Origin: an uncultured bacterium
GTDB lineage: Bacteria > Hydrothermota > Tepidihabitantia > SM23-42
Assembly (NCBI GenBank): GCA_965603515.1
Contig: CBFDDH010000005.1
Location: forward strand, 27,886 to 91,885
Reading direction: 5' to 3'
DNA length: 64,000 bases
Position 1 is the first letter of the stretch. Each line of letters starts with the position of its first letter. Shown one piece after another: positions 1 through 35,045 of the stretch. The notes under the pieces were generated by a model. It ran no database searches. It was not told the origin of the DNA and worked only from the letters and a program-made list of their open reading frames with translations. A program made the position numbers and the translations under genes.

Positions 1-2061
1 TTTTTCAATGGCGTGATTGCTGATTAGATATATGCCCTTTTTTTGGAAGAACTTCCTGATTTCCACAATAGATTTGCCTGAACGAACCATACGAACAATA
101 CTGGGATCGAATTTCAAAACTTCATATAGCCCTTCACGTCCAAAATACCCAGTATTATGACACTTCGCACAGCCGACTGGATGAGCGATACGCACCGGAA
201 TATCATTAGTAAAAGGCATGAGTATATTCCGTTCATTCGAAGAAATCTCCGTTACTTTCTTGCAGCATGAACAGAGTTTCTTGACCAATCTCTGCGCAAC
301 TACACAGATAACTGCATCTGCTATAACGCCGCTCTCAATGCCCAATCTTTCAAGTCGGAAAACAGCTGTCGTCGTATCAGTTGTATGCAGCGTCGTTAAA
401 GTAAGATGGCCTGTACTTGCAAAATCCATTGCCATTTTTGCAGAATATTGATCTCTAATCTCTCCAAGAAAGATTACATCCGGGTCCAATCTCACCACTG
501 ATTTAAGCAATGTCTTAAATGTTATACCAGCTTTTTCATTTACCTGCTGTTGATTTGCAAAAGGCATAAGATACTCAACCGGGTCTTCAATCGTCACAAG
601 ATTTCCTACCTTGCATTCTATGTGTGAGAGTAAACTATAAATCGTTGTAGTCTTGCCAGACCCTGTTGGTCCAACAACCAAAATCAGACCACGTGTTCGA
701 TTGATGACATCCATCATTGTATCAGCCTGTTCATTAGTCATCCCAAGCTCGTTCAATTTTTTTGGTTTGGCATACGGTTGCAGCATTCTTATTACGATAT
801 TCTCACCCTCTGGTGTTGATGCAGTAGCTAAACGGAGTTTATAATTCTTGTCGTCAATCACCGCTTCCAAGGCACCATCCTGGGGTCTTCGTCGCTCAGC
901 TATATCCATACCGCTAATTGCCTTGAAACGACCTATTAACATAAAGCCCATTTTCTTTTCCAGAGTAAACATATTTCTCATATCACCATCTATTCTAAAA
1001 CGAATAGTGCAATCGTTTTTCTTTAGCTCAATGTGTACATCACTTGCTCTTTCTGATGCAGCCGCGAATAGTAGTCTGTTTGCAATGCCAGAAGTCGATT
1101 GATCTTCAGTATCCAGATTGTAAGACGGAGTAGTAGTTTTTGGATCAACAGGCTCAACGAGCCCCTCTACTTCATTGGTACTGAAATCCTGAGATCGTAC
1201 TGTATCATCTTCGTCTTGATTAGTATGCAATATTGATTCAATATTTATTGGCGGAGTAATCGTAAGCCTCAGTCTTTCGTTTTGTGAGTAGAATCTCTCC
1301 AAAATATCAATGACTTCTAGATTAAAGGGGTTGCTCAATACAAAGGTACATTTTCTATCTTTTTGCTTTAATGCAACAATAAGATTCGATTTACAGAATG
1401 GAACGGGAAGTATACCCAGCTCAACATCATCTGGTTTGATCTTAGGTAAAAAAGGAAGTTTTAGATAATCTGCGATATACACCGACATGCTTGTATTATC
1501 AATACCGATTCCATGTGCTGTTGAATAGAGACTTGAATGGTGCATCATATCCAGTTTATATTGCTGTTCAGGCGATAGATTTAGTTTGTCAGACAGAAAT
1601 TCTTTGAATTGAATGAAATTAGATGAAGTAAGACTGACGTCTGACTTAACCGCATCTCCCCGGAAATCTTTCCATCGCAGGGCAGTTTTGAGATGATAAC
1701 GAACGTTTTCAAACAAGATGTCTTTCTTTATAGGCTTAACAAGATAACCCACCGCGCCGAGGGCGAATGCCTTTGTTCGATCTTTTTCCTTTTTTAAAGC
1801 AGTCACAAATACAACCGGAATGAAGGCGGTTTCTGATTTTTCCTGGAGTTTGTAGCAGAAGTCATAACCATCCATTTCCGGCATCATAATATCAAGCAGA
1901 ATAAGATCGGGCGTGACATCTCGGAGTATCTCCAAACCATGGAACCCACTTTCCGCAATCATAACATCATAACCTTCACCGCTCAATAAACTCTTGGTTA
2001 GCTTTAGTATATTACTGTCGTCGTCGACAACCAGAATAAGTGGTTTAGCTGAACTATTCAT
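1..2061 (-). CDS. REC (response-regulator receiver) domain fused to a GspE/PilB-family type II secretion / type IV pilus assembly ATPase. The C-terminus runs off the window start (3' partial). Not in the ORF track because no stop codon lies inside the window.
   Basis: Manual minus-strand translation from ATG (complement 2061..2059): MNSSAKPLILVVDDDSNILKLTKSLLSGEGYDVMIAESGFHGLEILRDVTPDLILLDIMMPEMDGYDF... (REC: DD pair, phospho-Asp in LLD, T and K downstream). Then a GspE N-domain-like segment. ATPase motifs: Walker A GPTGSGKTTT (~640-690), LVTIEDPVEY, Walker B DVIFLGEIRD, His-box TGHLTLTTLHT, C-terminal tetracysteine CSCC...CAKC zinc motif. Frame checked codon by codon; it is open from 2061 down to nt 1. 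Confidence 0.8.
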   Translation of the reverse strand, partial: MNSSAKPLILVVDDDSNILKLTKSLLSGEGYDVMIAESGFHGLEILRDVTPDLILLDIMMPEMDGYDFCYKLQEKSETAFIPVVFVTALKKEKDRTKAFALGAVGYLVKPIKKDILFENVRYHLKTALRWKDFRGDAVKSDVSLTSSNFIQFKEFLSDKLNLSPEQQYKLDMMHHSSLYSTAHGIGIDNTSMSVYIADYLKLPFLPKIKPDDVELGILPVPFCKSNLIVALKQKDRKCTFVLSNPFNLEVIDILERFYSQNERLRLTITPPINIESILHTNQDEDDTVRSQDFSTNEVEGLVEPVDPKTTTPSYNLDTEDQSTSGIANRLLFAAASERASDVHIELKKNDCTIRFRIDGDMRNMFTLEKKMGFMLIGRFKAISGMDIAERRRPQDGALEAVIDDKNYKLRLATASTPEGENIVIRMLQPYAKPKKLNELGMTNEQADTMMDVINRTRGLILVVGPTGSGKTTTIYSLLSHIECKVGNLVTIEDPVEYLMPFANQQQVNEKAGITFKTLLKSVVRLDPDVIFLGEIRDQYSAKMAMDFASTGHLTLTTLHTTDTTTAVFRLERLGIESGVIADAVICVVAQRLVKKLCSCCKKVTEISSNERNILMPFTNDIPVRIAHPVGCAKCHNTGYFGREGLYEVLKFDPSIVRMVRSGKSIVEIRKFFQKKGIYLISNHAIEK

Positions 2062-2371
2062 AAATGACCTCGATTCGTTCAAGATAATCCTTCAACTTAT
2101 CTACACACTTCCTTATCTGCTCTTCATTTCTTTCTTGTGCTGCTTGTTCAAGAAATTCGCCGATTTCACTTATCACATCAAATCCATATGCACCGCCAGA
2201 ACCACTCAAACCATGTCCCAATGTTTCGATTCTCACAAAATCATGATTCTCTAATAAAACTAAAATCACATCGACTTTGTTGTTGATGTCTACGAGATAA
2301 CCAGGAATCAGATCTTTTATCTCGGCTAAAGCATATACAATTATTCTATTACCATTTTTGTGGCTTAGCAT
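2054..2371 (-). CDS. Small putative Hpt (histidine phosphotransfer) domain protein
   Basis: 105 aa. The segment LGHGLSGSGGAYGFD resembles the Hpt phospho-His motif HxLKGSSxxxGA. Stop TAG 2054-2056 lies 2 nt before the REC-GspE ATG, and the upstream gene stops 1 nt before this ATG (translational coupling). Confidence 0.45.
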   Translation of the reverse strand: MLSHKNGNRIIVYALAEIKDLIPGYLVDINNKVDVILVLLENHDFVRIETLGHGLSGSGGAYGFDVISEIGEFLEQAAQERNEEQIRKCVDKLKDYLERIEVIYE

Positions 2372-2372
2372 A

Positions 2373-3059
2373 TCAATTTTGAGCTAATTGAGTTAATTCA
2401 TTCATATACTGTAAAAGCTCATTATACTTTTTTTTATACTCTAAGAACAAATCCTTATAGTTATTATCGTTTTCGTCATCCACCATCTCTCTTTCTTCAT
2501 CAGCGATCATCTTTTCAAGCGATGGTATAAATTCTTCTATTTCCTTGCCGTCATACTCAGTCTGTTTTTTCTGACTAGGTTCTAAGAATCCTTCTTCTTC
2601 AAGCCACTTGCGAGGATCGATGAGGTCCTGAGATTCTTCTTTTTGTAACCATATTTCCTTCGCTTTGTTGACATCAGCAATCACCGCGGGATAAAATCCT
2701 CTTACTTCAGATATATACAACTTCGGGAAATCAATATTTTTCTCATCGTACTTGATGAGTTTATACTGTTTAAAATATTTCTGAAATTCACTTTTCGCGC
2801 TTTCATCAGCCTCACTATACAGTCCTACTATTGGTGGAATATCAATATCGAGTTTCTGACAAAGTCTAAATAGTGTCCCCTGCATAATTATTTCAAGCAA
2901 CAGATTAATATTTGCTATAATTATGTTGAATCTATTTTTGAATCTACAAATCATCTCGAGTGTTTCAGAACGAGTCCCGATTGCTATTATCCGCTCCCTG
3001 CAGAGTAGATCGCATAATTTTTTTCTTATATCTTTATCCGGCTCGATTAGAAGAATCAC
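2373..3059 (-). CDS. Pseudo-receiver-like protein, paralog A (REC-like N-terminus lacking the canonical DD / phospho-Asp; acidic, coiled C-terminal half)
   Basis: 228 aa. N-terminus MILLIEPDKDIRKKLCDLL reads like REC beta1-alpha1, but with E-P-D in place of DD, and IIIANI where the phospho-Asp strand should be. About 55-60% identical to the 5529..6224 product (shared ...GTLFRLCQKL..IPPI...YPxVIADxNKAxExWL..EES...RKWLEEEGFLE). Confidence 0.5.
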   Translation of the reverse strand: MILLIEPDKDIRKKLCDLLCRERIIAIGTRSETLEMICRFKNRFNIIIANINLLLEIIMQGTLFRLCQKLDIDIPPIVGLYSEADESAKSEFQKYFKQYKLIKYDEKNIDFPKLYISEVRGFYPAVIADVNKAKEIWLQKEESQDLIDPRKWLEEEGFLEPSQKKQTEYDGKEIEEFIPSLEKMIADEEREMVDDENDNNYKDLFLEYKKKYNELLQYMNELTQLAQN

Positions 3060-3165
3060 ATATTATTATGAAATGAAAAGAATGATGTAGCAACCAAAGA
3101 GAATACGTATTTATCTCTAGGCGGTTCTACCCAAGGAGTGAAGATCCGTTAGTTGATAAGTGGAT

Positions 3166-3257
3166 GGGGTCAAATCTTGAATAGTGAATACATAGCCAGA
3201 ATTTAGATATTGCGAAGGAATAGAAAGTACGCTATTCACTATTCAAGATTTGACCCC
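3166..3257. repeat. Perfect 25-bp inverted repeat (GGGGTCAAATCTTGAATAGTGAATA ... TATTCACTATTCAAGATTTGACCCC) with a 42-bp spacer, in the divergent intergenic region
   Basis: Arms at 3166-3190 and 3233-3257 are exact reverse complements. Each arm contains TTGACC reading outward on its own strand. Confidence 0.85.
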
Positions 3258-3305
3258 AGTAACCCCCAGTAATTATACCTATGTGGGAATAAGCACTTTC
3301 CATCA

Positions 3306-3333
3306 TTGTCTTATATTAGTATGACCATATAAT
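3306..3333 (+). promoter_or_regulatory. Putative sigma70-type promoter (TTGTCT-N16-TATAAT) giving a leaderless or near-leaderless transcript for the REC gene
   Basis: -10 TATAAT at 3328-3333 ends 7 nt before ATG 3341. -35-like TTGTCT at 3306-3311. Confidence 0.35.
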
Positions 3334-3340
3334 TCAGTAA

Positions 3341-3700
3341 ATGAAAAAACGAATCTTGGTTTGTGACGATGAGGAATCGATCAGATTATTACTCAGTGAG
3401 GCGCTAAATGACACCTACGAAGTAATCGAAGCATCTGATGGCCGCGAGGCAGTGAAAATGATCACGAAAGAACCCTTTGATCTACTCATTACCGACATAA
3501 AGATGCCGAGGACACATGGTTTTGAGGCAATTGAACGTATCCGAGAAAGAAATAAATCAATACCCATCGTTATCTGCTCTGCTTACCGACTGATGAAAGA
3601 TGATGTTGTAGTAACTACCTCGGATGTGGCGGCTTTCTTTACGAAGCCGATCGACATGAAGGCACTTAAATCTAAAGTGCTTGAACTCATCGGTACGTAG
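3341..3700 (+). CDS. Single-domain CheY-like response regulator (REC)
   Basis: 119 aa. MKKRILVCDDEESIRLL (DD), LLITDIKMP (phospho-Asp), VICSAY, FFTKP (conserved K). Stop TAG directly abuts the next ATG. Confidence 0.85.
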   Translation: MKKRILVCDDEESIRLLLSEALNDTYEVIEASDGREAVKMITKEPFDLLITDIKMPRTHGFEAIERIRERNKSIPIVICSAYRLMKDDVVVTTSDVAAFFTKPIDMKALKSKVLELIGT

Positions 3701-4294
3701 ATGAAACCCCGCATTGGCGAGCTTCTCGTCAAGAACGGCATAATCACTGAAGCCCAACTAAAAGAGGCTCTTGTGCTCCAGAGAGAACAAGAAAAAAGAC
3801 TCGGTGAAATCCTTATTGAATTGGGTCACCTGTCTTCAAAAGACTTGGTCTGGATACTTAGTGAACAGGCTGACATACCGTTCGTAGAAATCCGACCTGA
3901 AATGTTAGATAAGAAGCTCATTAACGCTTTCCCGGAGAATATCCTCTATGATAATAGCATATTACCGCTTTACGAAACTGAGGACAAGATTTACGTCGCA
4001 TTAGGCAACCCTATTGATACAACAGCCACACAAGCAATCAAGCGCTTCACCACAAAAGAGGTGGTTACCTCAGGCACTGACCCTTATAAAATCGAAAAGT
4101 TGCTGAACAAATTTTTTCTATCTGAGCAAATGGAAGAAAGTCTAGGACAAGAGAAAATTGACAAAACAGCTGTTAAGATCGTGACCGAAAAGGCAACCAT
4201 TGAATTCATTGATGAGTTGGGTAAGGTAACGACAAAAAAAGCCCCTCTTGAGATTATCATGACTATTAAAAAGGAAGATGGAGATGCAGAATAA
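3701..4294 (+). CDS. Stand-alone GspE N-terminal / MshEN-type domain protein (putative c-di-GMP receptor)
   Basis: 197 aa. Two tandem 24-residue MshEN motifs: RIGELLVKNGIITEAQLKEALVLQ and RLGEILIELGHLSSKDLVWILSEQ. Both match RLGxx(L/V/I)(L/V/I)xxG(L/V/I)(L/V/I)xxxxLxxxLxxQ. These are followed by the T2SSE_N beta subdomain (ILPLYETEDKIYVALGNPIDTTATQAIKRFT). No ATPase domain. Confidence 0.7.
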   Translation: MKPRIGELLVKNGIITEAQLKEALVLQREQEKRLGEILIELGHLSSKDLVWILSEQADIPFVEIRPEMLDKKLINAFPENILYDNSILPLYETEDKIYVALGNPIDTTATQAIKRFTTKEVVTSGTDPYKIEKLLNKFFLSEQMEESLGQEKIDKTAVKIVTEKATIEFIDELGKVTTKKAPLEIIMTIKKEDGDAE

Positions 4295-5325
4295 TGGATG
4301 AAATGCAACAATTACTGCAACGGACGGTTGACATGAAAGCGAGCGATCTTCATATTAGTGCTGGCTCACCGGTCATGTTACGAGTCCGTGGCTCAATGAA
4401 AAATCTAAATGCAAAACCCATTAGCCAAGAAACTGCACAAAATCTAATAAACCAAATACTCACTAAGGAACAAATCACTACTCTCAAAAAAGATCATGAA
4501 ATCGACTTCTCCCTTGACCTTCCTGATACAGGACGATTTCGAGTAAATGTCTTTCATCAACGACAAGGACTTAGCGGGGTTTTCAGAAGCATACCACATG
4601 ATATGCCCGCAATAGAAGAACTTGGTCTGCCAAAAATAATTAAAGAACTAGTCGATTTGGACTGCGGGCTCATTCTCGTAACCGGACCTACCGGCAGCGG
4701 GAAATCTACCACGCTTGCCGCAATGATAGACTATATCAATAATAATAAAGATGGTCATATAATAACCATTGAAGATCCTATTGAATTCATTCACTCTTCA
4801 AAAAAATGCGTTGTCAATCAACGCGAGGTGGGAAGCAATACCCATTCATTTGCCGATGCCTTGAGGAGTGCTCTAAGAGAAGACCCTGACTACATATTGA
4901 TCGGTGAAATGCGGGACTTGGAGACAATCGCCCTCGCACTTACTGCGGCCGAAACAGGACACTTGGTCTTTGGAACTCTCCATACTTCGAGTGCACCAAA
5001 AACAATCACCCGAGTCATAGATGTCTTCCCAATGACACAACAAGACCAGATAACAACACAGCTTTCAGAATCGCTTCAGTGTGTAATCGCCCAAAAACTG
5101 TACCCACGAATGGACGAATCTGGGCGTATTGCAGCATTCGAGATAATGATTGCAACTCAGGCAGTGCGTAATCTTATTAGAGAGAAAAAGATATTTCAAA
5201 TCGAATCAATCATACAAACCGGACGCCAACTCGGCATGCAAAATATGGAACAGTCAAAAAGGAGACTTGTTTCAGAAGGTAAGCTCTCTCCTGAATTCCT
5301 GAAGGAACGGCTGAGTCTATATTGA
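4294..5325 (+). CDS. pilT: Type IV pilus retraction (twitching motility) ATPase PilT
   Basis: 343 aa. Walker A GPTGSGKSTT, Asp box ITIEDPIEF, Walker B DYILIGEMRD, His box TGHLVFGTLHT, and the PilT C-terminal motif AFEIMIATQAVRNLIRE. Start overlaps the upstream stop (TAATGG). Confidence 0.9.
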   Translation: MDEMQQLLQRTVDMKASDLHISAGSPVMLRVRGSMKNLNAKPISQETAQNLINQILTKEQITTLKKDHEIDFSLDLPDTGRFRVNVFHQRQGLSGVFRSIPHDMPAIEELGLPKIIKELVDLDCGLILVTGPTGSGKSTTLAAMIDYINNNKDGHIITIEDPIEFIHSSKKCVVNQREVGSNTHSFADALRSALREDPDYILIGEMRDLETIALALTAAETGHLVFGTLHTSSAPKTITRVIDVFPMTQQDQITTQLSESLQCVIAQKLYPRMDESGRIAAFEIMIATQAVRNLIREKKIFQIESIIQTGRQLGMQNMEQSKRRLVSEGKLSPEFLKERLSLY

Positions 5326-5436
5326 GCACGTGTAGTCCCATACAAAATAGTCAGTCAACTATAGCACCAACCCCTTTCTATTAGAATACAGGTATTAGAA
5401 TTGTTAGCATTCGTTAAGCAATCATTGCCAACGATA

Positions 5437-5468
5437 TCATTTTGTCAATTAGCAAAATGACAAAATGA
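5437..5468. promoter_or_regulatory. 11-bp perfect inverted repeat TCATTTTGTCA-N10-TGACAAAATGA (operator-like), followed by a tandem CAAAATGA
   Basis: 5437-5447 and 5458-5468 are reverse complements. The repeat lies about 23 bp upstream of a -35 box. Confidence 0.6.
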
Positions 5469-5490
5469 GATGGCGCTCAATTGTAGATCC

Positions 5491-5518
5491 TTGACAATCA
5501 AGATTCTGTTTCTATAAT
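5491..5518 (+). promoter_or_regulatory. sigma70-type promoter TTGACA-N16-TATAAT for pseudo-receiver paralog B, near-leaderless
   Basis: TTGACA 5491-5496, TATAAT 5513-5518, ATG at 5529. No Shine-Dalgarno sequence. Confidence 0.5.
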
Positions 5519-5528
5519 TGCCATACTT

Positions 5529-6224
5529 ATGATCCTTTTGATCGAACCAAATAAACGTATCAGAAAACGCCTTTGTGATCTTTTGAGTCGTGAAAGAATT
5601 CTCGCTATTGGTACTTATCCTGAGACATTGGAGATGATCGCAAAGTTTAAAAATAGAATAAATATTATTATAGCAAGTATTCGTATGTTTAAAGATATAC
5701 TTTTACGGGGAACGCTCTTTCGGCTCTGCCAGAAGCTCTATATAGAAATCCCTCCCATTCTGGTTTTTTACAGAAGGGGTGATGAGAAGATCAAGGAAGA
5801 ATTTGAGACGAACAAAGTACACTGTTCAATTATTAAGTTTGATGGTGAAGATACGAGTTTCCCCGAGCGATATATTGCGGCTATAAAAACCCTGTATCCA
5901 GAGGTCATCGCTGATATCAACAAGGCTACTGAGATGTGGTTAAAAGGCGAGGAGTCAGAAACACCGAAAGATCATCGAAAGTGGCTTGAAGAAGAAGGGT
6001 TCCTCGAGGCAATGGAGAATCTGAAGATTGGGAAATTGACCAGAGACGTAGAACAAATAATCCCGCTGATGAGGAAAATGTTGTCCGAGGAGAAAAAAGG
6101 ACCGAAAGAAAAAAAACAAAAAAAGAAACAAGAAGCTGATTACAAACGTATGTATCTTGAACTTAAACGAAAACATGATGAGCTTTTGAAGTATGTAAAG
6201 GAATTAGTCGATCTTTCAAAATAG
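5529..6224 (+). CDS. Pseudo-receiver-like protein, paralog B, with a Lys-rich tail (KKGPKEKKQKKKQ)
   Basis: 231 aa, paralog of 2373..3059. Shares the same non-canonical N-terminus MILLIEPNKRIRKRLCDLL. Confidence 0.5.
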   Translation: MILLIEPNKRIRKRLCDLLSRERILAIGTYPETLEMIAKFKNRINIIIASIRMFKDILLRGTLFRLCQKLYIEIPPILVFYRRGDEKIKEEFETNKVHCSIIKFDGEDTSFPERYIAAIKTLYPEVIADINKATEMWLKGEESETPKDHRKWLEEEGFLEAMENLKIGKLTRDVEQIIPLMRKMLSEEKKGPKEKKQKKKQEADYKRMYLELKRKHDELLKYVKELVDLSK

Positions 6225-6225
6225 A

Positions 6226-7767
6226 ATGTTTTCTGTTTTAATAGTAGTAATACTCTTCATCATCCCTCAAATTGTCACAGGACAAAATATATTTAAAGAT
6301 GTGCAAAATCGCTACCCGCGGGTGCGCCAAGCTCGAGAGAACTGTGAATACGATATTGACTCGCTTTTTCAAACGAGGGGCATTAACTATCCACCAGAAG
6401 AAATTTTAATAGTAGCTTATAAAAAAGAACGGCTTATTCACTTATGGGCACGCTCTGACACCAATAAAACTCTTCTTTTTATCAAACAATATCCCTTTAC
6501 TGCATTTTCCGGCACGCTCGGACCGAAACGTAAACAGGGTGATCTCCAGATACCTGAAAGCTTTTATTATATCAATCATTTTAATCCTTATTCCAACTTT
6601 CACTTATCCATGAAGATAAGCTATCCAAATCAATCAGATAGCATACTTGGTAAAAAAGGCAGTCTCGGCAATGAAATACGTATTCATGGAAGTTTTGTAA
6701 CTATCGGCTGTATTCCGATCGGCGATGAATCAATCGAAGAACTGTATATAATATGTGTTGATATGAAATCAAAAGGGCAACACAAGATACCGGTTTATGT
6801 CTTTCCAGGAAAGATGGACAAACAAAATTGGTCAGGATTAAAGCAAGTAGCCGGTCAGGATAGTATCCTGCTCAATTTCTGGCATAATTTGCGACAAGGC
6901 TATGATATCTTCACGGCAACACACCGAAAATTGAGTTATCGAGTTAACCTAAAAGGGCAGTATATTTACTCGTACGATCACTCACATTTAAATTCATTTC
7001 CGTGGCTCGATGTGCATAATGTCCAAAATTGCTTATTCAATAGGCTTGAACCACCCGCAGACTATGAACGGACATACTGTCCTCTCGGTTCTTTTGAAGA
7101 TTGGCTAAGACATTTACCTTTGAAACCAGGTAATCCACAGGTATACCTGTATAATGGGAATGAGAAATCCTATCAGAGTGGTCACTATGCAGTAGTCGAT
7201 ATTGACGTCGGGCAAGAAGATCTGCAGCAATGTGCCGATGCGATAATCAGACTTTATGCAGAATATCTGTTTTCAAAAAACTGTCTTGATAATATCATTT
7301 TTGATCTAACTAATGGTGATGCGGTTGGTTTCAGAAAATGGGTTTCAGGGTATCGACCATTAGTCAGTGGGAATACTGTAACCTGGCACAAACGTGCGGC
7401 TTCAGATTCTTCGTATGATACATTCCGTGCATATCTGAAATTCATTTTTGCATACGCTGGAACTTATTCGATAAGTCAGGAGACACAACGTATTGAAAAC
7501 CACCGTGATATGGTGATCGGTGATATATTTATCCAAGGCGGCTTTCCCGGCCACGCAGTCCTGGTTACTGATATGGCGACAAACCCCCGAACCGGTGAAA
7601 AAGTATTCTTGCTTAGCCAGAGTTATATGCCTGCCCAGGATATACATATTTTAAAAAATCTAAATGACCCGGATCTGAACCCCTGGTATAAACTGGATTT
7701 TGGCAATACCCTGCACACTCCAGAATGGACATTTGATACTGATGACTTAAAACGGATCACCCCTTGA
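6226..7767 (+). CDS. Secreted L,D-transpeptidase-like (YkuD-fold) protein with a large uncharacterised C-terminal domain
   Basis: 513 aa. N-terminal hydrophobic signal/anchor. GPKRKQGDLQIPESFYYI and IRIHGSFVTIGCIPI resemble the YkuD His/Cys catalytic core (HG[ST]...GC[IV]). Confidence 0.45.
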   Translation: MFSVLIVVILFIIPQIVTGQNIFKDVQNRYPRVRQARENCEYDIDSLFQTRGINYPPEEILIVAYKKERLIHLWARSDTNKTLLFIKQYPFTAFSGTLGPKRKQGDLQIPESFYYINHFNPYSNFHLSMKISYPNQSDSILGKKGSLGNEIRIHGSFVTIGCIPIGDESIEELYIICVDMKSKGQHKIPVYVFPGKMDKQNWSGLKQVAGQDSILLNFWHNLRQGYDIFTATHRKLSYRVNLKGQYIYSYDHSHLNSFPWLDVHNVQNCLFNRLEPPADYERTYCPLGSFEDWLRHLPLKPGNPQVYLYNGNEKSYQSGHYAVVDIDVGQEDLQQCADAIIRLYAEYLFSKNCLDNIIFDLTNGDAVGFRKWVSGYRPLVSGNTVTWHKRAASDSSYDTFRAYLKFIFAYAGTYSISQETQRIENHRDMVIGDIFIQGGFPGHAVLVTDMATNPRTGEKVFLLSQSYMPAQDIHILKNLNDPDLNPWYKLDFGNTLHTPEWTFDTDDLKRITP

Positions 7768-8549
7768 TGAAAAAACGCCAGTTGAATAAAGAACAGGATA
7801 CTCGTCGTTTATATAACGATCTTGCCTGGACCTGGCCTATTATAAGCCCACCCGAAGATTATATCGAAGAGGGAGAAAAATACAGAAGTCTGATAAAAAG
7901 ATATTCGAAGATACCAGTATCAACCCTGCTCAATCTTGGCTGCGGCGGTGGTCATGTTGACTGGGTGCTGAAAAAATATTTCAGGATCACAAGTATTGAT
8001 ATTAGTACAAATATGTTGAAACTTGCAAAAAAATTGAATCCAGATGTAATCTATAAAAAGGGCGATATGAGATCTATTAGATTAAAAAAAGCATTTGATG
8101 CGGTCTTGATCCTTGATTCAATCAACTATATGCTCACTAAAAAAGACCTGTCATCCGTATTTAAAACAGCTTACGAACATCTCAACCCAGGTGGCATGCT
8201 TTTGACTTTCGCAGAGGAGTATAATAAAATAGAACAGCACAAACTATCGTGGTCAACTCATAAAAAGGGTGATACTGAAATAACATTCATCGAGCATTAT
8301 TATGATTCAGACCCGACCGATACTACATTCGAATGCATTTTTGTTTACTTGATACGCAAAAACAAAAAACTGGACATTCAGACCGATCGCCATCTTGGTG
8401 GTATATTCAGTCTGAAGACCTGGCTTCAATTATTAGAAGAAATCGGGTTCAAAGTGAAGAAATTGGGGCTTGGACATTCATCTTTCCCAAAAGGGACTAC
8501 GATACCAACCTTTATTTGCACAAAACCTCTTCCAGCTTCAAAAAGCTAA
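7764..8549 (+). CDS. Class I SAM-dependent methyltransferase
   Basis: 261 aa. Motif I LNLGCGGGHVD, post-I SIDIS, motif II FDAVLILDS. 4-nt overlap (ATGA) with the upstream gene. Confidence 0.75.
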   Translation: MMKKRQLNKEQDTRRLYNDLAWTWPIISPPEDYIEEGEKYRSLIKRYSKIPVSTLLNLGCGGGHVDWVLKKYFRITSIDISTNMLKLAKKLNPDVIYKKGDMRSIRLKKAFDAVLILDSINYMLTKKDLSSVFKTAYEHLNPGGMLLTFAEEYNKIEQHKLSWSTHKKGDTEITFIEHYYDSDPTDTTFECIFVYLIRKNKKLDIQTDRHLGGIFSLKTWLQLLEEIGFKVKKLGLGHSSFPKGTTIPTFICTKPLPASKS

Positions 8550-8573
8550 CCCATAAACCATCTTCTTACATAC

Positions 8574-8602
8574 ATTGACATCGATGGCTTTTTTGTTAAA
8601 CT
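8574..8602 (+). promoter_or_regulatory. Possible promoter TTGACA-N17-TAAACT upstream of the A2M gene
   Basis: TTGACA 8574-8579. Weak -10 at 8597-8602. GGAGG RBS 8606-8610. ATG 8619. Confidence 0.3.
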
Positions 8603-8618
8603 ATTTGATGGAGGTAGT

Positions 8619-11600
8619 ATGAAAAGATCATTTATATTATTCATATCAATATTTACAGCATTCACATTATCATGTCAAAAAAAGAAAGCTTTTCAAGCTG
8701 GGTTTGAAATCCCGGAAGGACAAAAAAGAGACGTAGAAGTCCTCTATATAACACCGGAAGGCGGGACCGAAGGACTGAGTGAAGTAGGCGAAATACTCGT
8801 CTCCTTTAATCAGCCGATGGTTCCCCTCCAAGGCGTACCAGAATTTGAAAAGAGTGGACCACTTGAAATCAAACCGGAAATTAAAGGTAGATTCAGATGG
8901 CGCGGGACATCCACCGTATTTTTTATTCCGGATCAACCATTGGTCGGTGGAACCCAATACACATGCAAGGTTCCCAAAGGCACAAAATCCTTAACCGGAA
9001 CGCAGCTCAAAACAGACTACACCTGGCAGTTCACTACCGCACGACCACAGCTCAATACTTCGAACCCATATCACAATCAGAAATGGGTTGAGCTGGAGCA
9101 CAAAATATATCTTCTTTTCAATCAACCGATGTCACCGGGAAAAGTGAAATCCTTTATCAAGTTACTCGTGCGCGACGAAAAGAGTTTCGAAAAACCAGTT
9201 TCATTTAAAACACGATCCATGACTGACAAAGAGAAACAGGGGATCGGTGCCTACTGGAAATCAGAAAGAACGATCGTTATCAACCCAGACCAAGACCTGC
9301 CAATTGAAAGTGAGGTGATGATTAAATTGCTCGAGGGTTTACCCGGAGCTTCAGGTGACTATGGCATGGAACATGAACGAACCATAACCTTTCGAACCTT
9401 TAACTATTTTAGATTTGAGGGTCTTGATAATACTATACAAAACCCCCAGGAATCAGTAAGGTTCGAGTTCAGCAACCCCGTGGTATACCAGGATTTTATC
9501 AAACACATCAAATTTAACCCGGAAATAAAAATACCTGAGCATTATAAGAACTGGACACATTCCTCGACGCGACTCTATGTCTATGTAGACCTTAAACCCG
9601 ATACTAAATATCAAGTGTTTATTGACAAAGAACTGACTGACCGTTTCAACAATAAACTCGGTGAGGATATTGTCGCGACGTTCAAAACAACAGATTATGA
9701 ACCCCAGATCAAAATAGCTACTGGTCGCGGGATCGTTGAATCGTATTCAGCAAAGCGACATCCAATTACTGTTATCAATGTAAACCGGGTCGGTAAAAAA
9801 ATGGCGCTTTTGGAACGAAGTGAGATAATCCCCACGGTCCTTAGTAGTGGCGTATTTTATGGATGGCGCAAGTACAACCCGGTGTTTAATTATGACATTA
9901 ATGAAAAATGGAAAATCAATGGCGAAAGAAACAAACGGATCACGGTGCCACTTGAACTTAAGGATGTTCTACAGAACAAAGACGCTGGTTATGTTTTCTT
10001 TGAGATCGATGCATACAAAAAGCTCCGCTATGGGCGGCGATATTACCGAGGCTTACTCCAGATAACAAATATCGGCATTTCTGCTAAATTCTCGTCGGAA
10101 AATAATCTGGTATGGGTTACGACCTTGAAAGATGCCCAACCCCTCTACAATGCGCAAGTCGAATTACGTGACGATAAAAATCGCGTGCTCTGGCAAGGCA
10201 AAACTGACCAGGACGGTCTGGTCCAAACACCAGGGTGGAAACCATTAGGTCTAGTCCCCGAGAACGACTGGAACAAACCACGGATTTGGGTATTTGCCAG
10301 AAGCGGTAATGATGAAACATTTATTGTGTCAGATGAAGGCACTGGTGTTTATCCATATGAGTTTGGTATCTCATATGACTGGAGTCCTGAACCAGAGAAG
10401 TATCAAACTTATATCTTCACTGAGCGGGGTATCTACAAAAGCGGCGAAGATGTTTATATTAAAGGTATCATAAGAGAAAAACATAAGGGTACGTGGCGGA
10501 TATCCCGTAGTGTCAAAACCGTTGACCTCGAGATCTACAATTCGCGGGATGAACAGATATATAACAGGACAACCACTGTTTCAAAATATGGTTCCTTTGA
10601 CATCAAACTCCCTATTGCATCAGATGCTCCCACTGGTTGGTATGAAATAACTGCTGACCTACCTGGTGTTAAACCTAATTTCTACGGTTCATTCAGGGTC
10701 GAAGCTTACCGACCTGCACAATTCGAAGTAAAGGCACAGAGCGAAAAAGAAGAATACATCTTTGGCGATGAATTCGAGGGCGAAATAAAGGGGACTTATC
10801 TCTACGGCGGGCCGATGGCCGGAGAGAGTGCCGAGTGGATAATAACCCTTGATCATTCATATTATACACCACCTGGTCATAAAGGCTATCGATTTGGTCC
10901 ATCTTATTGGTACGATGATGAGGATTGGGAATTCGAAGGGGTTATTGGATCAGATGCTGGTGAACTTGACCAATATGGCAAAATGAAGCTACAAAAGAAA
11001 CTCGCTCAGGAAGATATACGAAGAACAATGCTACTTACTCTTGAAGGATCAGTGACTGCCGAAAATCGACAAACCCTTTCAGGACGAACAAATTGCCTGA
11101 TCCATTGTGGTGAGTATTATATCGGAATAAAACCCCAGAAAACGTTCATCGAAATAAAAAAATCAAGCCAGTTCGAGTTTATCACAACAAGACCCGATGG
11201 GGAATTGACCGTCAAGAAAAACATTAGCGTCGAGATCATCCGAAGGGAATGGATAAGTGTACGCAAAGCTGGTGTTGAAGGTAGATTCGAATGGATTACT
11301 GAGAAGAAAGACAGTATTGTCAGCAAATTCAAAGTGAAGACCAGCGAAAGTCCAGTCGCTAAGTCCTTTACGCCTGAAAGAACTGGCTTTTACATAATCA
11401 AAGCTCAGGGTAAGGATTCCCGTAACAATACCATCATTACGAGTACCTACTTTTACGTAACTGGTGCTGGCTATATATCTTGGCGAAGAAACGACGACGA
11501 CCACGTGGAGATTATCCCGGATGAAGAAAAGTACAAACCTGGCGATGTCGCAAAAATACTCGTTAAGTCGCCCTATGAAAAAACCCTTGCCTTAGTTACG

Positions 11601-14294
11601 ATCGAACGTGAGTTCATTATTGACAGATTTACTCAGGAGCTGATCGGATCGAGTGATCTCATTGAAATTCCGATTAATGAAAATTACTTACCCAATGTCT
11701 ACGTCTCGGTTATCCTCATCCAAGGTAGAAAAGGATTTGATAAATTTGATGAAGCAGGTAAGGATATTGGCAAACCATCTTTTAAAATTGGTTACACAAA
11801 TCTTAAGGTAGACCCTGGGACAAAACATCTTGATATTACAATTACTACTAACAAAGATGAGTATAGGCCTCAAGATTCAGTGATGGTGAAACTGAAGGTC
11901 GCTGACCATAAAGGTCAGGGGGTTAAATCAGAGATCATCCTCGCAGTAGTAGACGTTGGGGTACTGAACCTTATTGGTTTTGAAACACCTGACCCATTCC
12001 CCATGTTCTATGGCTCCAGACAACTCTCTGTACAAACTGCCGAGAGCCGACTGCATATTATAGGTCAAAGAACTTATGATGAAAAAGGCGAGAACCGTGG
12101 CGGCGGCGGAACAGCGGCGGCGCCCTTTGCCTACCGCTCTGAATTCTTGACAACCGCATATTATAATGCTCGTATCTATACGAATTCAAAAGGTGAAGCA
12201 GTAATACGCTTCAAATTACCCGATAACCTCACGACCTTCCGGCTCATGGCAGTCGGACACACTAAGGCCTCTTGTTTTGGTTCAAGTGATTCAAAGATCC
12301 GGGTGAAAAAACCGCTTTTGTTGCTTGAGGCATTACCCCGATTTGTCCGGCTCGGCGATGAATTCGAAGCCGGTATTGTTGTCCACAATAATACGAACGT
12401 TTCTGGTAACGTGGTGGTCGAAGCCTCGGCTGATAATATCACACTCGTTAATGAAAGCAAAGAAACGCTGGAAATCCCTGACGGTCAAGAAAAAGAAATA
12501 CGCTTTGAGTACCGCGCTCACCAGGTCGGTCAAGCAACCTTCAGATTCAAAGTGACCATGGGACAGGAATCAGATGGGGTTGAATTAAAAATACCCGTGA
12601 TCTCACCGCGTCTGACCGAGGCTGTTGCATTGTATAGCCAGACCATAGACAAAATCGCTGAAGCAATCACTGTACCAAAAGACATATACCCAGATGTTGG
12701 CTATATTGAGTTTACAACTTCGTCATCAGCGCTTGTCGGACTTGAAGGTGGTGTTGAATACCTTATTAAGTATCCGTATGAGTGTCTTGAGCAGAAGACA
12801 TCGAGGATTCTACCGTTCATCCTCGCTGAAGATTTAATCAATTCTTTTGACCTTTCTGAGCTGAAGGGCAAAGACCTTAGAAAAGAAGTCCAGAATACTC
12901 TAAAAGAATTCAAAGATTTTCAACATTACAATGGTGGCTTCAAGTTCTGGCCGGACTCCTGGTATCCATCACCATGGTTAACTGCTTATGCTGTAAATGT
13001 GCTCGCAAAAGCAAAAAAGAAAGGCTATTACGTTGACATGAACATGCTCAATAGAGCAATAGACTACTTGAAAGATGTACTACGCCGCAGCGATGTTGAT
13101 TGGGAATATCCCTATAATAAAAATGTTCAACTCACCACCAAATGCTTTATCCTGTATTCACTCGTGCTATGGGATGTCTACGACCACGGCTATATGTCCA
13201 GACTCTTTGACAAACGTGACCAGATCTCACTTTTTGGCAAAACCTTGTTGCTAAAATCAGCCCATATCTACGGAAATTCATATTACAGGAAAGAACTACG
13301 GAGGATGATCCTCAACAAAATACATATGGCATCGACTACTGCTCATTTTGAAGAACCGGATGCGATCGGCATGGCTTGGATATGGCACTCCAATGTCAGA
13401 ACTACTGCGCTTATTCTCCAGGCATTGCTCGAAACTGGCGGTGAATTTGCCAATGCGGAAAAGATAATCAAGTGGTTAGTAACCGAAAGGAAAATCGGTC
13501 GCTGGCGTTCAACTCAAGAAAATATCTATGTCTTTGATGCATTCAATACATATTTTAGAATCTACGAAAAACAAACCCCCGATTTCATGGCGACTGTCTA
13601 TCTTGAGAATAAGGAAATCCTAAAAGAAATCTTCAAAGGCAGGGAACTACAGATACGAAGAAAAGAAGTGGGATTAGGTGATCTGACAAAAGGCAAAAAA
13701 CTGCCGGTTAATATTGAAAAAAGTGGTGACGGACGACTATACTATGGTCTGCGCATGCTTTACGCCCCCACGCGCGAACTCAAACCACGGGATGAAGGTC
13801 TCGCAGTATTCAAAGTGGTGGAGCCGCTCGCTGAAGGACTCTCTGGTGATGAATTGAGCGCCGGTAAAATCTACAAGGTAACGCTCAGTATTGTTACGCC
13901 CCAAGAACGTAATTTCGTAGTAGTCGATGATCCGCTTCCAGCTGGTGTTGAGGTCATAAATACATCATTTGATACTGAAAGCAAACAACTCCTCAAAATG
14001 ATGGATGGTAACATGGACTACTATGATGAATATTATGTAGAAGATTATTACGGCGGTGAGTATGATGACTACTACTATTACTATCCATCATGGGGTACAT
14101 TCGACCACTGGGAAATCTATGATGAAAAAGTTCTTTTGTTTGCTGATGCCTTAAGAGCAGGCGAGCATACCTTCTCTTATCTCGTACGTGCAATGACATT
14201 TGGGAACTTTACAATGCCACCAACCAAAGCCGAGGAGATGTATACACCTGAGGTTTTTGGGTATAACAGGCAACGAAGACTGGTGGTCAAGTAG
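8619..14294 (+). CDS. Bacterial alpha-2-macroglobulin family lipoprotein (ECAM/YfhM-like) with an intact thioester motif
   Basis: 1891 aa. Signal peptide plus Cys (MKRSFILFISIFTAFTLSC). Thioester YPYECLEQKTSR (bacterial CLEQ form) around nt 12770-12800. Gly/Ala-rich putative bait region GENRGGGGTAAAPFAY about 230 aa upstream of the thioester. Many MG-domain-like beta-rich repeats. Unusual Tyr/Asp/Glu-rich C-terminal insert. Confidence 0.8.
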   Translation: MKRSFILFISIFTAFTLSCQKKKAFQAGFEIPEGQKRDVEVLYITPEGGTEGLSEVGEILVSFNQPMVPLQGVPEFEKSGPLEIKPEIKGRFRWRGTSTVFFIPDQPLVGGTQYTCKVPKGTKSLTGTQLKTDYTWQFTTARPQLNTSNPYHNQKWVELEHKIYLLFNQPMSPGKVKSFIKLLVRDEKSFEKPVSFKTRSMTDKEKQGIGAYWKSERTIVINPDQDLPIESEVMIKLLEGLPGASGDYGMEHERTITFRTFNYFRFEGLDNTIQNPQESVRFEFSNPVVYQDFIKHIKFNPEIKIPEHYKNWTHSSTRLYVYVDLKPDTKYQVFIDKELTDRFNNKLGEDIVATFKTTDYEPQIKIATGRGIVESYSAKRHPITVINVNRVGKKMALLERSEIIPTVLSSGVFYGWRKYNPVFNYDINEKWKINGERNKRITVPLELKDVLQNKDAGYVFFEIDAYKKLRYGRRYYRGLLQITNIGISAKFSSENNLVWVTTLKDAQPLYNAQVELRDDKNRVLWQGKTDQDGLVQTPGWKPLGLVPENDWNKPRIWVFARSGNDETFIVSDEGTGVYPYEFGISYDWSPEPEKYQTYIFTERGIYKSGEDVYIKGIIREKHKGTWRISRSVKTVDLEIYNSRDEQIYNRTTTVSKYGSFDIKLPIASDAPTGWYEITADLPGVKPNFYGSFRVEAYRPAQFEVKAQSEKEEYIFGDEFEGEIKGTYLYGGPMAGESAEWIITLDHSYYTPPGHKGYRFGPSYWYDDEDWEFEGVIGSDAGELDQYGKMKLQKKLAQEDIRRTMLLTLEGSVTAENRQTLSGRTNCLIHCGEYYIGIKPQKTFIEIKKSSQFEFITTRPDGELTVKKNISVEIIRREWISVRKAGVEGRFEWITEKKDSIVSKFKVKTSESPVAKSFTPERTGFYIIKAQGKDSRNNTIITSTYFYVTGAGYISWRRNDDDHVEIIPDEEKYKPGDVAKILVKSPYEKTLALVTIEREFIIDRFTQELIGSSDLIEIPINENYLPNVYVSVILIQGRKGFDKFDEAGKDIGKPSFKIGYTNLKVDPGTKHLDITITTNKDEYRPQDSVMVKLKVADHKGQGVKSEIILAVVDVGVLNLIGFETPDPFPMFYGSRQLSVQTAESRLHIIGQRTYDEKGENRGGGGTAAAPFAYRSEFLTTAYYNARIYTNSKGEAVIRFKLPDNLTTFRLMAVGHTKASCFGSSDSKIRVKKPLLLLEALPRFVRLGDEFEAGIVVHNNTNVSGNVVVEASADNITLVNESKETLEIPDGQEKEIRFEYRAHQVGQATFRFKVTMGQESDGVELKIPVISPRLTEAVALYSQTIDKIAEAITVPKDIYPDVGYIEFTTSSSALVGLEGGVEYLIKYPYECLEQKTSRILPFILAEDLINSFDLSELKGKDLRKEVQNTLKEFKDFQHYNGGFKFWPDSWYPSPWLTAYAVNVLAKAKKKGYYVDMNMLNRAIDYLKDVLRRSDVDWEYPYNKNVQLTTKCFILYSLVLWDVYDHGYMSRLFDKRDQISLFGKTLLLKSAHIYGNSYYRKELRRMILNKIHMASTTAHFEEPDAIGMAWIWHSNVRTTALILQALLETGGEFANAEKIIKWLVTERKIGRWRSTQENIYVFDAFNTYFRIYEKQTPDFMATVYLENKEILKEIFKGRELQIRRKEVGLGDLTKGKKLPVNIEKSGDGRLYYGLRMLYAPTRELKPRDEGLAVFKVVEPLAEGLSGDELSAGKIYKVTLSIVTPQERNFVVVDDPLPAGVEVINTSFDTESKQLLKMMDGNMDYYDEYYVEDYYGGEYDDYYYYYPSWGTFDHWEIYDEKVLLFADALRAGEHTFSYLVRAMTFGNFTMPPTKAEEMYTPEVFGYNRQRRLVVK

Positions 14295-18335: not shown

Positions 18336-18338
18336 TCT

Positions 18339-19223
18339 TCATACTTTCACACTTCCATTTATCTTCTCCAATACTTTGTCTGCTTTTATTCGATGGGTAT
18401 GCAGACCAACCTGCTCGACAGTCAAACCCTGTGCAAGACCGAGCAGCTGGAAAAGATAAATAACCGGAATATTATAGCTCTTTCCCTTTTTACGGGATAT
18501 CATTATTTGACCTAAATCAAATGAAGAAAAACATGTCGGGCAGATCAAACCCATACAATCAGCACCACTTTTCTCGATCGATGCAAAGATCGCTTCAGTC
18601 ATTTCCAAGGGCAGTTCATCATCCATACATCCTTTTCCGCAACATAATACTTTTTCATGATGTTCAAGCGGGATTGCACCCATGGCAGTTATAAAGTCTT
18701 CAAGTATATCCGGGTAATCAGCATCATCAACATGCATAACCTGACTCGGTTTTAATATGTGACAACCATAATGAATCGCCACGGTAATTTCTTCAAGGGA
18801 TTTTTTTATTGATTTCTTTACTGCTTCGAGACCAAGATCATCTCTTATCATCTCAACGGCATGCTTTATTATTATCTTACCTTTATATTCCCGATTAATT
18901 CTCTTCAATCGTTTATTCACCTCATCTTTCAATGCTGGGTCTTCATTAAGGAGAAATTGTGCTTCTTTCAGAGTTGAGATACACCCGGAGCACATCGTAA
19001 TCAGCATATGTCCAGTCTCTTCAGCTACCGCTAAATTTCGAGTGGCCGTTACCAACCATTTCATCTTATCACGTGACTTGAAGTAAATAGGATCGGGGCA
19101 ACATGTAAAATTTTCAATATCAACAAGCTCAACACCTAATAGCGGTAAAGTGTTTCTCAGTGCCAATTCCATTTGAGGGTATTTGAGAGGCATCATACAA
19201 CCCCAGAAAGGCACGACCTTCAT
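18339..19223 (-). CDS. hdrB: HdrB-like subunit (two CCG cysteine-rich domains)
   Basis: 294 aa. CCPD...C and LCCGKGC / CPTC motifs typical of HdrB CCG domains. Confidence 0.75.
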   Translation of the reverse strand: MKVVPFWGCMMPLKYPQMELALRNTLPLLGVELVDIENFTCCPDPIYFKSRDKMKWLVTATRNLAVAEETGHMLITMCSGCISTLKEAQFLLNEDPALKDEVNKRLKRINREYKGKIIIKHAVEMIRDDLGLEAVKKSIKKSLEEITVAIHYGCHILKPSQVMHVDDADYPDILEDFITAMGAIPLEHHEKVLCCGKGCMDDELPLEMTEAIFASIEKSGADCMGLICPTCFSSFDLGQIMISRKKGKSYNIPVIYLFQLLGLAQGLTVEQVGLHTHRIKADKVLEKINGSVKV

Positions 19224-19273
19224 GATCGTACCACGGCTTTCTTTTCACATAATTCAATCAACACAGCAGCTCC

Positions 19274-21385: not shown

Positions 21386-21431
21386 TATTTAATCATTCAA
21401 CCTTTCAACCATTTTGTAACCATTCAACTAT

Positions 21432-25835: not shown

Positions 25836-25866
25836 TATTTTTATCTATTCCTTTCTTAGATTAAAA

Positions 25867-28434: not shown

Positions 28435-28526
28435 CCGTCAGACCTCCTTTCAACCATCTTTCAATATAACGCTTACCTATTCCAAACGTTAAATGTTTTT
28501 TCTCTGTACCGCTATCTTCATAAGGT

Positions 28527-29420: not shown

Positions 29421-29431
29421 TCTACACTCCC

Positions 29432-31819: not shown

Positions 31820-31873
31820 TATACCCCCTTACTTTTTAGCCATTAGCAATTAGCCACTGGCTATCAGCAAAAC

Positions 31874-33363: not shown

Positions 33364-33366
33364 ATT

Positions 33367-35042: not shown

Positions 35043-35045
35043 ACG

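Follow-up and report, generated by a model that had tools for sequence, protein, structure and literature searches.

A 7.7-kb signalling and motor gene cluster of Candidatus Stahlbacteria, probably composed of three separately conserved units

Introduction

Known controls of the motors of type IV pili and type II secretion systems (T2SS) are cyclic di-GMP (c-di-GMP) bound to the MshEN domain of the motor itself, and small trans-acting proteins. The genes described here lie at one end of a 64,000-nt stretch of DNA (contig CBFDDH010000005.1 of assembly GCA_965603515.1; 'the window'), the host genome of which is that of an uncultured Candidatus Stahlbacteria (WOR-3). Eight closely packed genes fill 7.7 kb, three on the minus strand and then five on the plus strand, as read from the list of open reading frames (ORFs) and the minus-strand translation. 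They were grouped into three modules. M1 comprises the pseudo-receiver gene paraA, an Hpt gene and a gene for a fusion of a receiver (REC) with a GspE/PilB-type ATPase. M2 comprises genes for CheY, a stand-alone MshEN protein and PilT. M3 comprises the paralog paraB, a gene for an LdtF-like/DUF4846 protein and, further on, an alpha-2-macroglobulin (A2M) gene. A first-pass annotation made from the sequence alone covered positions 1-7767 and described a single signalling island. The 7.7 kb probably represent three independently conserved transcription units, adjacent only in the lineage of the window; mechanisms for M1 and M2 are proposed below.

The closest described motors are the MshE/PilB-type ATPases (Vibrio cholerae MshE, PDB 5HTL; Thermus thermophilus PilF), which have the same GspE/PilB core with an N-terminal regulatory region (PMC5013675). 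MshEN was found to occur together with REC domains, and no system of the present kind was described (Wang et al., 2016; PMC5013675). The 197-aa MshEN protein resembles MshE in its fold (MshE-N) and in its two motifs RLGxxLLxxG..LxxxLxxQ, which lie 5 residues apart. Unlike MshE, the c-di-GMP module is here a separate polypeptide coupled to PilT, and the assembly-type ATPase has a receiver in front of a degenerate MshEN remnant that lacks the c-di-GMP motif.

Small trans-acting proteins that bind PilB or PilT and modulate their activity include those of the FimX-PilZ-PilB system of Xanthomonas, PilG and PilH of Pil-Chp, DrdR (PMC13507683) and the cyanobacterial PATAN regulators. DrdR combines one pseudo-receiver with one true receiver and stimulates both ATPases (PMC13507683). 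These regulators are never fused to the motor, have no dedicated Hpt and are not accompanied by a stand-alone MshEN beside PilT. No sequence kinship of paraA or paraB to trans-acting regulators of type IV pilus motors was found with Pfam, NCBIfam or profile searches. FrzS of Myxococcus xanthus (PMC9811614) likewise has a receiver fold without the phospho-acceptor Asp, a helical C-terminal part and a type IV pilus regulatory context. The likeness is one of features. paraA and paraB differ in being 228-231 aa long with one short C-terminal helix, their family is apparently confined to WOR-3, and the most consistent neighbours of paraB are A2M and a periplasmic LdtF-like/DUF4846 gene rather than pilus genes.

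Phosphorelays with a stand-alone Hpt (YPD1, LuxU, ArcB-HPt, P. aeruginosa HptB, Caulobacter ShpA) likewise use a small four-helix Hpt with an HxxKG-like His, and relatives of the present locus share with them a hybrid kinase upstream and a REC-containing output downstream. They differ in that the output here is a secretion/pilus-type hexameric ATPase and not a transcription factor or diguanylate cyclase, that the window clade has Ser for the Lys of the motif, and that no hybrid kinase is adjacent. The parts (REC, Hpt, MshEN, PilT and a GspE/PilB-type ATPase) are all of known kinds. No description of REC-GspE/PilB fusions, of an Hpt-REC-ATPase(-REC) unit with pilin-like partners, of a CheY-MshEN-PilT operon or of the pseudo-receiver family was found in the full-text literature searched, where absence is not proof.

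Gene order and a REP-bounded segment

The gene and domain calls of the first-pass annotation held for all components, by Pfam or, for the paralogs, by fold. On the minus strand, paraA (2373..3059) ends 1 nt before the start of the Hpt gene (2054..2371), the end of which, with its stop codon, overlaps the start of the REC-ATPase gene (<1..2061) by 8 nt, ATGAATAG. On the plus strand, the genes for CheY (3341..3700) and MshEN (3701..4294) abut, the MshEN stop and the PilT start (4294..5325) share 1 nt, and a gap of 203 nt separates PilT from paraB (5529..6224), which is followed by the LdtF-like/DUF4846 gene (6226..7767). Contig L001 (37.9 kb), matched by the exact Hpt protein sequence, added 12 kb past window nt 1.

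At 3165-3258, in the divergent intergenic region between paraA and cheY, a REPIN-like element consists of two perfect inverted copies, with a 42-nt spacer, of a 26-nt repeat, TGGGGTCAAATCTTGAATAGTGAATA. Further copies were located in L001 (8750-8841, 12075-12093, 13134-13152 and 17833-17899), in L050 (12131-12149) and in L106 (~9506-9570). A Y1_Tnp (RAYT-like) gene just beyond nt 1 has inverted copies on either side, an arrangement that qualifies as REP/RAYT; the gene product was recognised by its Pfam Y1_Tnp match, and no NCBIfam model matches it.

The window was compared with L106, a close relative in which CheY is 100%, PilT 92% and paraB 91% identical. There, 19 nt separate a GGDEF/HD-GYP gene from cheY, and a REPIN-like element sits at their junction. 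The corresponding blocks of the window genome, 75% and 90% identical in nucleotides to those of L106, stand ~9.1 kb apart. The intervening segment extends from about -5877 to 3235 in window numbering (L001, window orientation, 2070-11182) and has REP copies at both ends. It holds paraA-Hpt-REC-ATPase, the RAYT-like gene, an AtoS/AtoC-like pair, an archaemetzincin gene and a GcvH-like gene. Its right boundary, where synteny with L106 breaks, is at about window 3235 and is marked by the REPIN-like element.

L106 carries M2 and M3 contiguously (CheY-MshEN-PilT-paraB-DUF4846) without Hpt or REC-ATPase. Conversely, M1 is found without an adjoining M2 in L096 and in L050, the latter with a 91% identical ATPase and without paraA. 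The single island is not borne out by these loci, and that reading is weakened because the adjacency is not conserved: conservation in relatives holds for the modules and fails for the 7.7 kb as a whole. Clustering beyond chance, recurring in many genomes, was likewise seen for the modules and not for the entire 7.7 kb. The high density of signalling genes is thus in part accidental, the outcome of an insertion or rearrangement, bounded by REP copies, that brought M1 beside cheY.

There is some, if small, chance that the eight genes are nevertheless one regulon for a single type IV pilus, in which the Hpt-gated REC-ATPase would extend the filament with PilT as antagonist, the MshEN protein would give c-di-GMP input to either or both motors, and the pseudo-receivers would be adaptors. 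In its favour, the genes are adjacent and share a divergent intergenic region in the window genome, one assembly-type and one retraction-type ATPase are present, and the paralogs paraA and paraB flank both motors. A DUF4846 gene 60% identical to that of the window follows a REC-ATPase/Zn-ribbon/pilin cluster in WOR-3 locus L009, paraB follows PilT in L106 and L107 with a paralog near PilT in L014, and pili were seen on the only cultured WOR-3 isolate (PMC12285271). Such a regulon is contradicted by M1 without M2 (L050, L096, L007), by M2 without M1 (L106, L107, L013-L015) and by the REP/RAYT-bounded 9.1-kb segment with M1, which is missing at the syntenic site of L106. It is further opposed by two results given below: in other phyla the REC-ATPase has pilin-like partners of its own and no PilT nearby, and the window ATPase scores below the PilB equivalog cutoff.

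The REC-ATPase of M1

The full REC-ATPase has 715 aa, the last 28 codons lying past the window edge (L001). Pfam matches were obtained for Response_reg (residues 9-120, 96.8 bits), MshEN (205-285, 36.7 bits; second half of the domain only) and T2SSE (325-677, 348 bits). The acid pocket of the receiver, the integrity of which was critical to the first-pass annotation, is complete (D13, D14, D57, T87, K109), as expected of PF00072, and D13, D57 and K109 are invariant in a 19-sequence family alignment. The catalytic boxes are intact (motif scan: Walker A GPTGSGKTT, Asp box DPVEY, His box). Walker B is IFLGEIRD, identified by eye where the pattern scan gave no match. A tetracysteine Zn motif, C597/C600/C631/C634, is present and invariant across the family.

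The nearest solved structures were GspE/EpsE, PilF and PilB, at about equal scores. Scores fell under the equivalog cutoffs of both GspE (TIGR02533, 381.8 vs 630.25) and PilB (TIGR02538, 366.1 vs 675.65), and the protein therefore belongs to a separate subfamily of the GspE/PilB superfamily. With these scores, the earlier description as an 'extension ATPase' partnered with the neighbouring PilT is unproven. Of the platform protein (GspF/PilC) and (pseudo)pilins expected beside a GspE or PilB gene, the window has neither.

No c-di-GMP motif, strict or relaxed, was found in the REC-ATPase by motif scan. A degenerate, insertion-bearing remnant of the second motif was placed at residues ~168-200 by a weak profile-profile alignment (E=0.0033, probability 9.6%) between MshEN and the ATPase family, which was used solely for this placement. 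It had been proposed that the first half of the N-domain was exchanged for a receiver; the receiver is indeed there, and the second c-di-GMP motif is degenerate, not removed. The protein is a reduced member of a very widespread GspE/PilB-like family in which a receiver replaces, or precedes a degenerated form of, the c-di-GMP-binding half of MshEN.

Family members are found mostly outside WOR-3. Among 8000 scored REC-ATPase candidates, at least 7121 matched the family at E<=1e-20. Most are ~850 aa long with a second, intact C-terminal REC, which is missing from the shorter group (714-716 aa) formed by the window protein and its close relatives. For gene neighbourhoods, one genome per species was sampled and exact look-ups were added; loci were counted where the REC-ATPase had enough upstream sequence. 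At least 27 of 35 such loci have Hpt directly upstream of the REC-ATPase, most often with an overlap of 4-11 nt, and more than 10 phyla are represented. Hosts include Syntrophorhabdaceae, Omnitrophota, Nitrospirales, Chloroflexota, Coriobacteriia, Elusimicrobiota and WOR-3. The coupling of Hpt and ATPase is deeply conserved.

Downstream of the ATPase, genes for a Zn-ribbon protein and a pilin-like protein were found in ~10-12 of 30 loci with enough downstream sequence (L009 12564-13648; L019, L023, L034, L038, L047, L048 and others). The Zn-ribbon partner has ~180 aa, an N-terminal CxxC..CxxC zinc ribbon, one transmembrane helix, a Cys-containing C-terminal domain and no Pfam match. The pilin-like partner combines a prepilin N_methyl motif with a 3keto-disac_hyd/DUF1080 lectin-like domain. 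No PilC-like family recurs near the REC-ATPase in the sampled loci, and none of 10 spot-checked neighbours matches Pfam T2SSF (all unrelated enzymes); no PilT was found near the REC-ATPase in the loci examined from other phyla. Since relatives have pilin-like partners of their own, the REC-ATPase is probably the motor of a separate type IV filament-like system, and the neighbouring PilT need not be its partner.

In the window genome, neither the 64 kb nor the 12 kb beyond nt 1 yielded a pilin, PilC or secretin gene. The search comprised Pfam on ORFs >=150 aa (14-53 kb), a six-frame prepilin-motif scan, contig extensions at both ends, and tblastn of the window with the pilin-like and Zn-ribbon partner proteins of relatives. 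The six-frame scan gave no prepilin motif near any ORF start across the 64 kb.

It is very unlikely that the REC-ATPase is not a filament motor here and instead serves in signalling as an orphan ATPase, or is a remnant in decay on a mobile segment bounded by REP copies. Such a status would agree with the absence from the window of the C-terminal REC, pilin and Zn-ribbon partners of relatives, and with the lack of a PilC-type platform gene next to sampled family members. It would agree also with the 3' end of the gene, where the final 7 codons and stop (..LGSNLE*) come from a REP copy, likewise in the 91% relative L050, and with the adjoining RAYT-like gene. However, all catalytic motifs and Zn-binding cysteines are intact, and forms of 714-716 aa persist at 57-91% identity in several samples with Hpt coupling kept, which indicates purifying selection.

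Hpt and candidate phosphodonors

The first-pass annotation placed a small Hpt-like gene directly upstream of the REC-ATPase, and this is a real Hpt. The 105-aa protein (His53) marginally exceeds the Pfam cutoff (PF01627, 26.6 vs 24.6 bits), its gene overlaps that of the ATPase by 8 nt, and a family profile built from 20 members matches known HPt proteins in the PDB (YPD1, ArcB-HPt, CheA-P1, plant AHPs and LuxU). The orthologues of L009 and L011 carry Pfam Hpt matches. H53 is invariant in the 20 orthologues, within the motif GH(S/G)(M/L)(K/S)GSGGxYGF, and G57 is also invariant. Most members keep the Lys of HxxKG, which is replaced by Ser in the window protein and in that of L050 and by Phe in that of L007.

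Kinase-family genes, hybrid or otherwise, lie near the Hpt-ATPase pair in 21 loci. A hybrid kinase gene adjoins Hpt upstream in L009 and lies one gene further upstream in L011. At L009 6984-9685, in a WOR-3 relative, genes for an H-NOX (HNOB) protein and the hybrid kinase are directly upstream of Hpt-REC-ATPase-REC, and the H-NOX gene hints at gas (NO/O2) input to the relay.

The first-pass annotation suggested that kinase, pilin and PilC genes may lie upstream of nt 1. A kinase of 366 aa (PAS-HisKA-HATPase_c) is encoded there, on L001, together with a sigma54-type regulator, the archaemetzincin, the Y1_Tnp protein, a GcvH-like protein and a REC-PAS-GGDEF-REC-HD-GYP protein; pilin and PilC genes are absent from these 12 kb. 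The kinase and the sigma54 regulator score best as AtoS-like and AtoC-like (NCBIfam) and are therefore probably a pair of their own. The PAS kinase was rejected as the obvious donor for Hpt or CheY; it is ~29% identical to the kinases preceding cheY in relatives.

Small response regulators are encoded directly upstream of Hpt in distant loci (L011 9051-9677, L018 9047-9709, L022 9932-10636). In these, a coiled coil and a Cys-rich C-terminal domain (FPxCAxCKKIRD...HGICPDC) accompany a true REC, and they are possibly an intermediate receiver of the relay. These ~210-230-aa proteins were considered as paraA homologues and rejected, being true receivers with a Cys-rich C-terminal domain.

CheY, MshEN and PilT of M2

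CheY (119 aa) matches Response_reg at 89.4 bits and has the acid-pocket residues D9, D10, D52 and K102 of PF00072 receivers. The stand-alone MshEN (197 aa) matches Pfam MshEN (45.8 bits) and NF053729, an NCBIfam model of the MshE-related c-di-GMP motif (64.6 vs cutoff 38). As motif criterion, two 24-residue sequences RLGxx(L/V/I)(L/V/I)xxG(L/V/I/F)(L/V/I)xxxxLxxxLxxQ, 5 residues apart, were required. Both strict motifs are present, RIGELLVKNGIITEAQLKEALVLQ at residues 4-27 and RLGEILIELGHLSSKDLVWILSEQ at 33-56, with the 5-residue spacer. In an AlphaFold2 (AF2) model (pLDDT 84.5), the four-helix motif module is accompanied by an N1D-like domain and, at the C-terminus, a beta-hairpin. The top Foldseek matches of the model were chains of 5HTL (MshE-N with c-di-GMP; TM 0.75-0.77, rmsd ~3.1-3.3 Å), and phmmer likewise aligns the protein to V. 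cholerae MshE, 5HTL. A complete c-di-GMP signature and the MshE-N fold thus bear out the earlier call of a stand-alone MshEN between CheY and PilT. Its named homologues are WOR-3/Stahlbacteria, and the family looks restricted to WOR-3.

PilT (343 aa), a PilT-family retraction-type ATPase, matches T2SSE (175 bits) and TIGR01420 (477.4 vs cutoff 319.1; residues 4-334). The motifs present are Walker A GPTGSGKST, Walker B ILIGEMRD, His box GHLVFGTLH and AVRNLIRE (cf. the AIRNLIRE signature). Of the PilB, PilC and pilins with which a type IVa PilT works, none was located in the 64 kb or the 12 kb past nt 1.

The CheY-MshEN-PilT trio forms a WOR-3-wide operon: with abutting or overlapping genes, it was found in five more WOR-3 contigs (L013, L014, L015, L106 and L107). 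MshEN is 47-87% and CheY 67-100% identical among them, and PilT of L013-L015 is 69-73% identical. A PAS-HisKA kinase gene is directly upstream of the trio in four of the five (not L106), and HD-GYP or GGDEF genes adjoin in all five. No REC-ATPase lies within 10 kb of the trio in these contigs. By gene order, MshEN is translationally coupled to PilT in 6/6 genomes examined. Because this includes five genomes without a nearby REC-ATPase, PilT is favoured over the REC-ATPase as the partner of MshEN. A promoter-like 10/12 site at 3306-3333 ends 7 nt before the cheY ATG.

We consider it highly improbable that the stand-alone MshEN supplies in trans the c-di-GMP module lost from the REC-ATPase, so that the ATPase, and not PilT, would be the target and would integrate both signals. 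In favour of this, neither c-di-GMP motif occurs in the ATPase where the MshEN protein has both, the two genes are 1.6 kb apart in the window, and trans c-di-GMP adaptors for PilB are known (FimX-PilZ-PilB; PDB 7LKO was among the MshEN fold matches). Against it, the coupling in all six genomes is to PilT, the ATPase keeps its own N1D-like half (MshEN 205-285), which would make the second half of the stand-alone protein redundant, and the two families differ in range, mostly outside WOR-3 for the one and apparently WOR-3-restricted for the other.

The pseudo-receivers and the envelope unit M3

paraA (228 aa) and paraB (231 aa) share 51% identity, and neither has a Pfam or NCBIfam match. The AF2 model of the paralog N-domain (pLDDT ~88) has the (beta-alpha)5 receiver topology, and its Foldseek matches in the PDB were almost all receiver domains. 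In an hhalign comparison with a REC alignment (E=3.9e-6), E6, P7 and N50 stand where receivers have their three Asp residues, and N50, at the phospho-acceptor position, is nearly invariant in the paralog family. The two proteins are therefore non-phosphorylatable pseudo-receivers, outside the definition of REC (PF00072). The receiver fold and the Asn at the phospho-acceptor position agree with the first-pass annotation, in which both were called pseudo-receivers. A conserved DPRKWLEEEGF motif and a C-terminal helix were further noted in paraA. Both proteins are probably adaptors or decoys.

The family is small: 79 clusters were obtained by a word-seeded search, and 64 representative clusters at E<=1e-3 by a full profile search of 1.84 billion proteins. 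Named homologues are WOR-3/Stahlbacteria. Metagenome loci were collected with a 9-sequence alignment (10 loci). A paraA-type gene precedes Hpt-REC-ATPase in the window, L096 and L007/L097, and is lacking in L050. A paraB-type gene is directly before the DUF4846 gene, followed by the ~1900-aa A2M, in the window and L102-L106. It directly follows PilT in the window and in both L106 and L107; in L014 it is also downstream of PilT, at a distance of ~1.5 kb. By gene order, paraB belongs with DUF4846/A2M rather than with PilT.

A promoter-like sequence, TTGACA-16-TATAAT (5491..5518, plus strand), matches the sigma70 consensus at 12/12 positions, by consensus match only, and ends 10 nt before the paraB ATG, which suggests a separate M3 transcription unit. 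Together with the site before cheY, its position suggests very short or absent leaders, so far as can be predicted from sequence.

M3 is an envelope unit. The 513-aa protein after paraB, which lies inside the span of the first-pass annotation and is not mentioned there, is a secreted YkuD/LdtF(DpaA)-like and DUF4846 protein. It matches Pfam DUF4846 at 327 bits, YkuD weakly, and NF040599 (LdtF_DpaA_YafK) at 118.9 bits, below cutoff, and its N-terminus is signal-peptide-like by eye. Two genes flank it downstream on the plus strand. The first encodes a SAM-dependent methyltransferase (7764..8549; Pfam Methyltransf_25/11) and is not at the corresponding position in the gene list of L106. The second encodes the bacterial A2M (8619..14294; 1891 aa; Pfam bMG3, MG2, A2M_BRD, A2M, TED and bMG10), syntenic with paraB-DUF4846 in L102-L106.

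The string of paraB, LdtF/DpaA-like and DUF4846 protein and ~1900-aa A2M (window 5529-14294; L102-L106) is conserved in WOR-3, and a gene of ROK-family size (~310 aa) on the opposite strand belongs to it. The string, headed by a cytoplasmic pseudo-receiver, is reminiscent of the A2M-PBP1c 'defence and repair' pairs of proteobacteria.

Proposed mechanism and implications

We infer the following phosphotransfer, binding and regulatory steps. In M1, a (hybrid) kinase would pass phosphate, possibly via a REC, to His53 of Hpt and on to Asp57 of the ATPase, switching the motor on or off. The receiver would take the regulatory place held in MshE/PilB by the c-di-GMP-binding four-helix module. In M2, c-di-GMP-bound MshEN would dock in trans on the PilT hexamer and modulate retraction. 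Phosphorylated CheY would be a second input, fed by the PAS kinase that precedes cheY in relatives, and the neighbouring HD-GYP and GGDEF genes would set the c-di-GMP level. paraA may dock to Hpt or the ATPase as adaptor or decoy.

Several observations weigh against this scheme or the separateness of its units. The Hpt is only just over the Pfam cutoff and has Ser in place of the Lys three residues past His in the window clade, and no hybrid kinase is near M1 in the window genome. The window REC-ATPase is without the C-terminal REC, pilin and Zn-ribbon partner seen in relatives. A direct contact of MshEN with PilT is suggested purely by gene coupling. The DUF4846 gene after the REC-ATPase cluster in L009, the paralogy of paraA and paraB, and paraB after PilT in 3-4 genomes argue against strict independence of the modules, and some functional link may exist.

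If the scheme is right, the motor of M1 would itself be the terminal response regulator of a His-Asp-His-Asp relay with a dedicated, coupled Hpt, a design spread over thousands of proteins in many phyla. The detached MshEN paired with PilT would put retraction, not extension, under c-di-GMP control. Annotation is also affected, in that REC-ATPases are now labelled 'response regulator', 'TadA' or 'PilB' indiscriminately.

A wider proposal is put forward tentatively and with considerable doubt. Hpt, REC-ATPase(-REC), Zn-ribbon membrane protein and lectin-domain pilin may together form a previously unrecognised phosphorelay-gated type IV filament-like system in more than 10 mostly anaerobic phyla, in which the motor would itself be a response regulator and no dedicated PilC-type platform would be encoded alongside. 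In WOR-3 the lineage-specific pseudo-receivers might serve as adaptors that wire it both to a PilT controlled by c-di-GMP/MshEN and to a unit for envelope remodelling (LdtF-like/DUF4846 and A2M).

Other genes of the window

A long redox block occupies 15858-30649 on the minus strand. It encodes FlpD/MvhD-like and HdrB/C-like CCG proteins, a 1405-aa multi-flavin/FeS oxidoreductase and the subunits of 2-oxoacid:ferredoxin oxidoreductase, the latter in two sets. Next comes an operon for phosphate uptake (Pst/PhoU; 31154-35837). Two large proteins (40212-41705 and 41715-45509) carry Por_Secre_tail domains, the C-terminal sorting domains of type IX secretion, and the organism therefore probably has a type IX secretion system.

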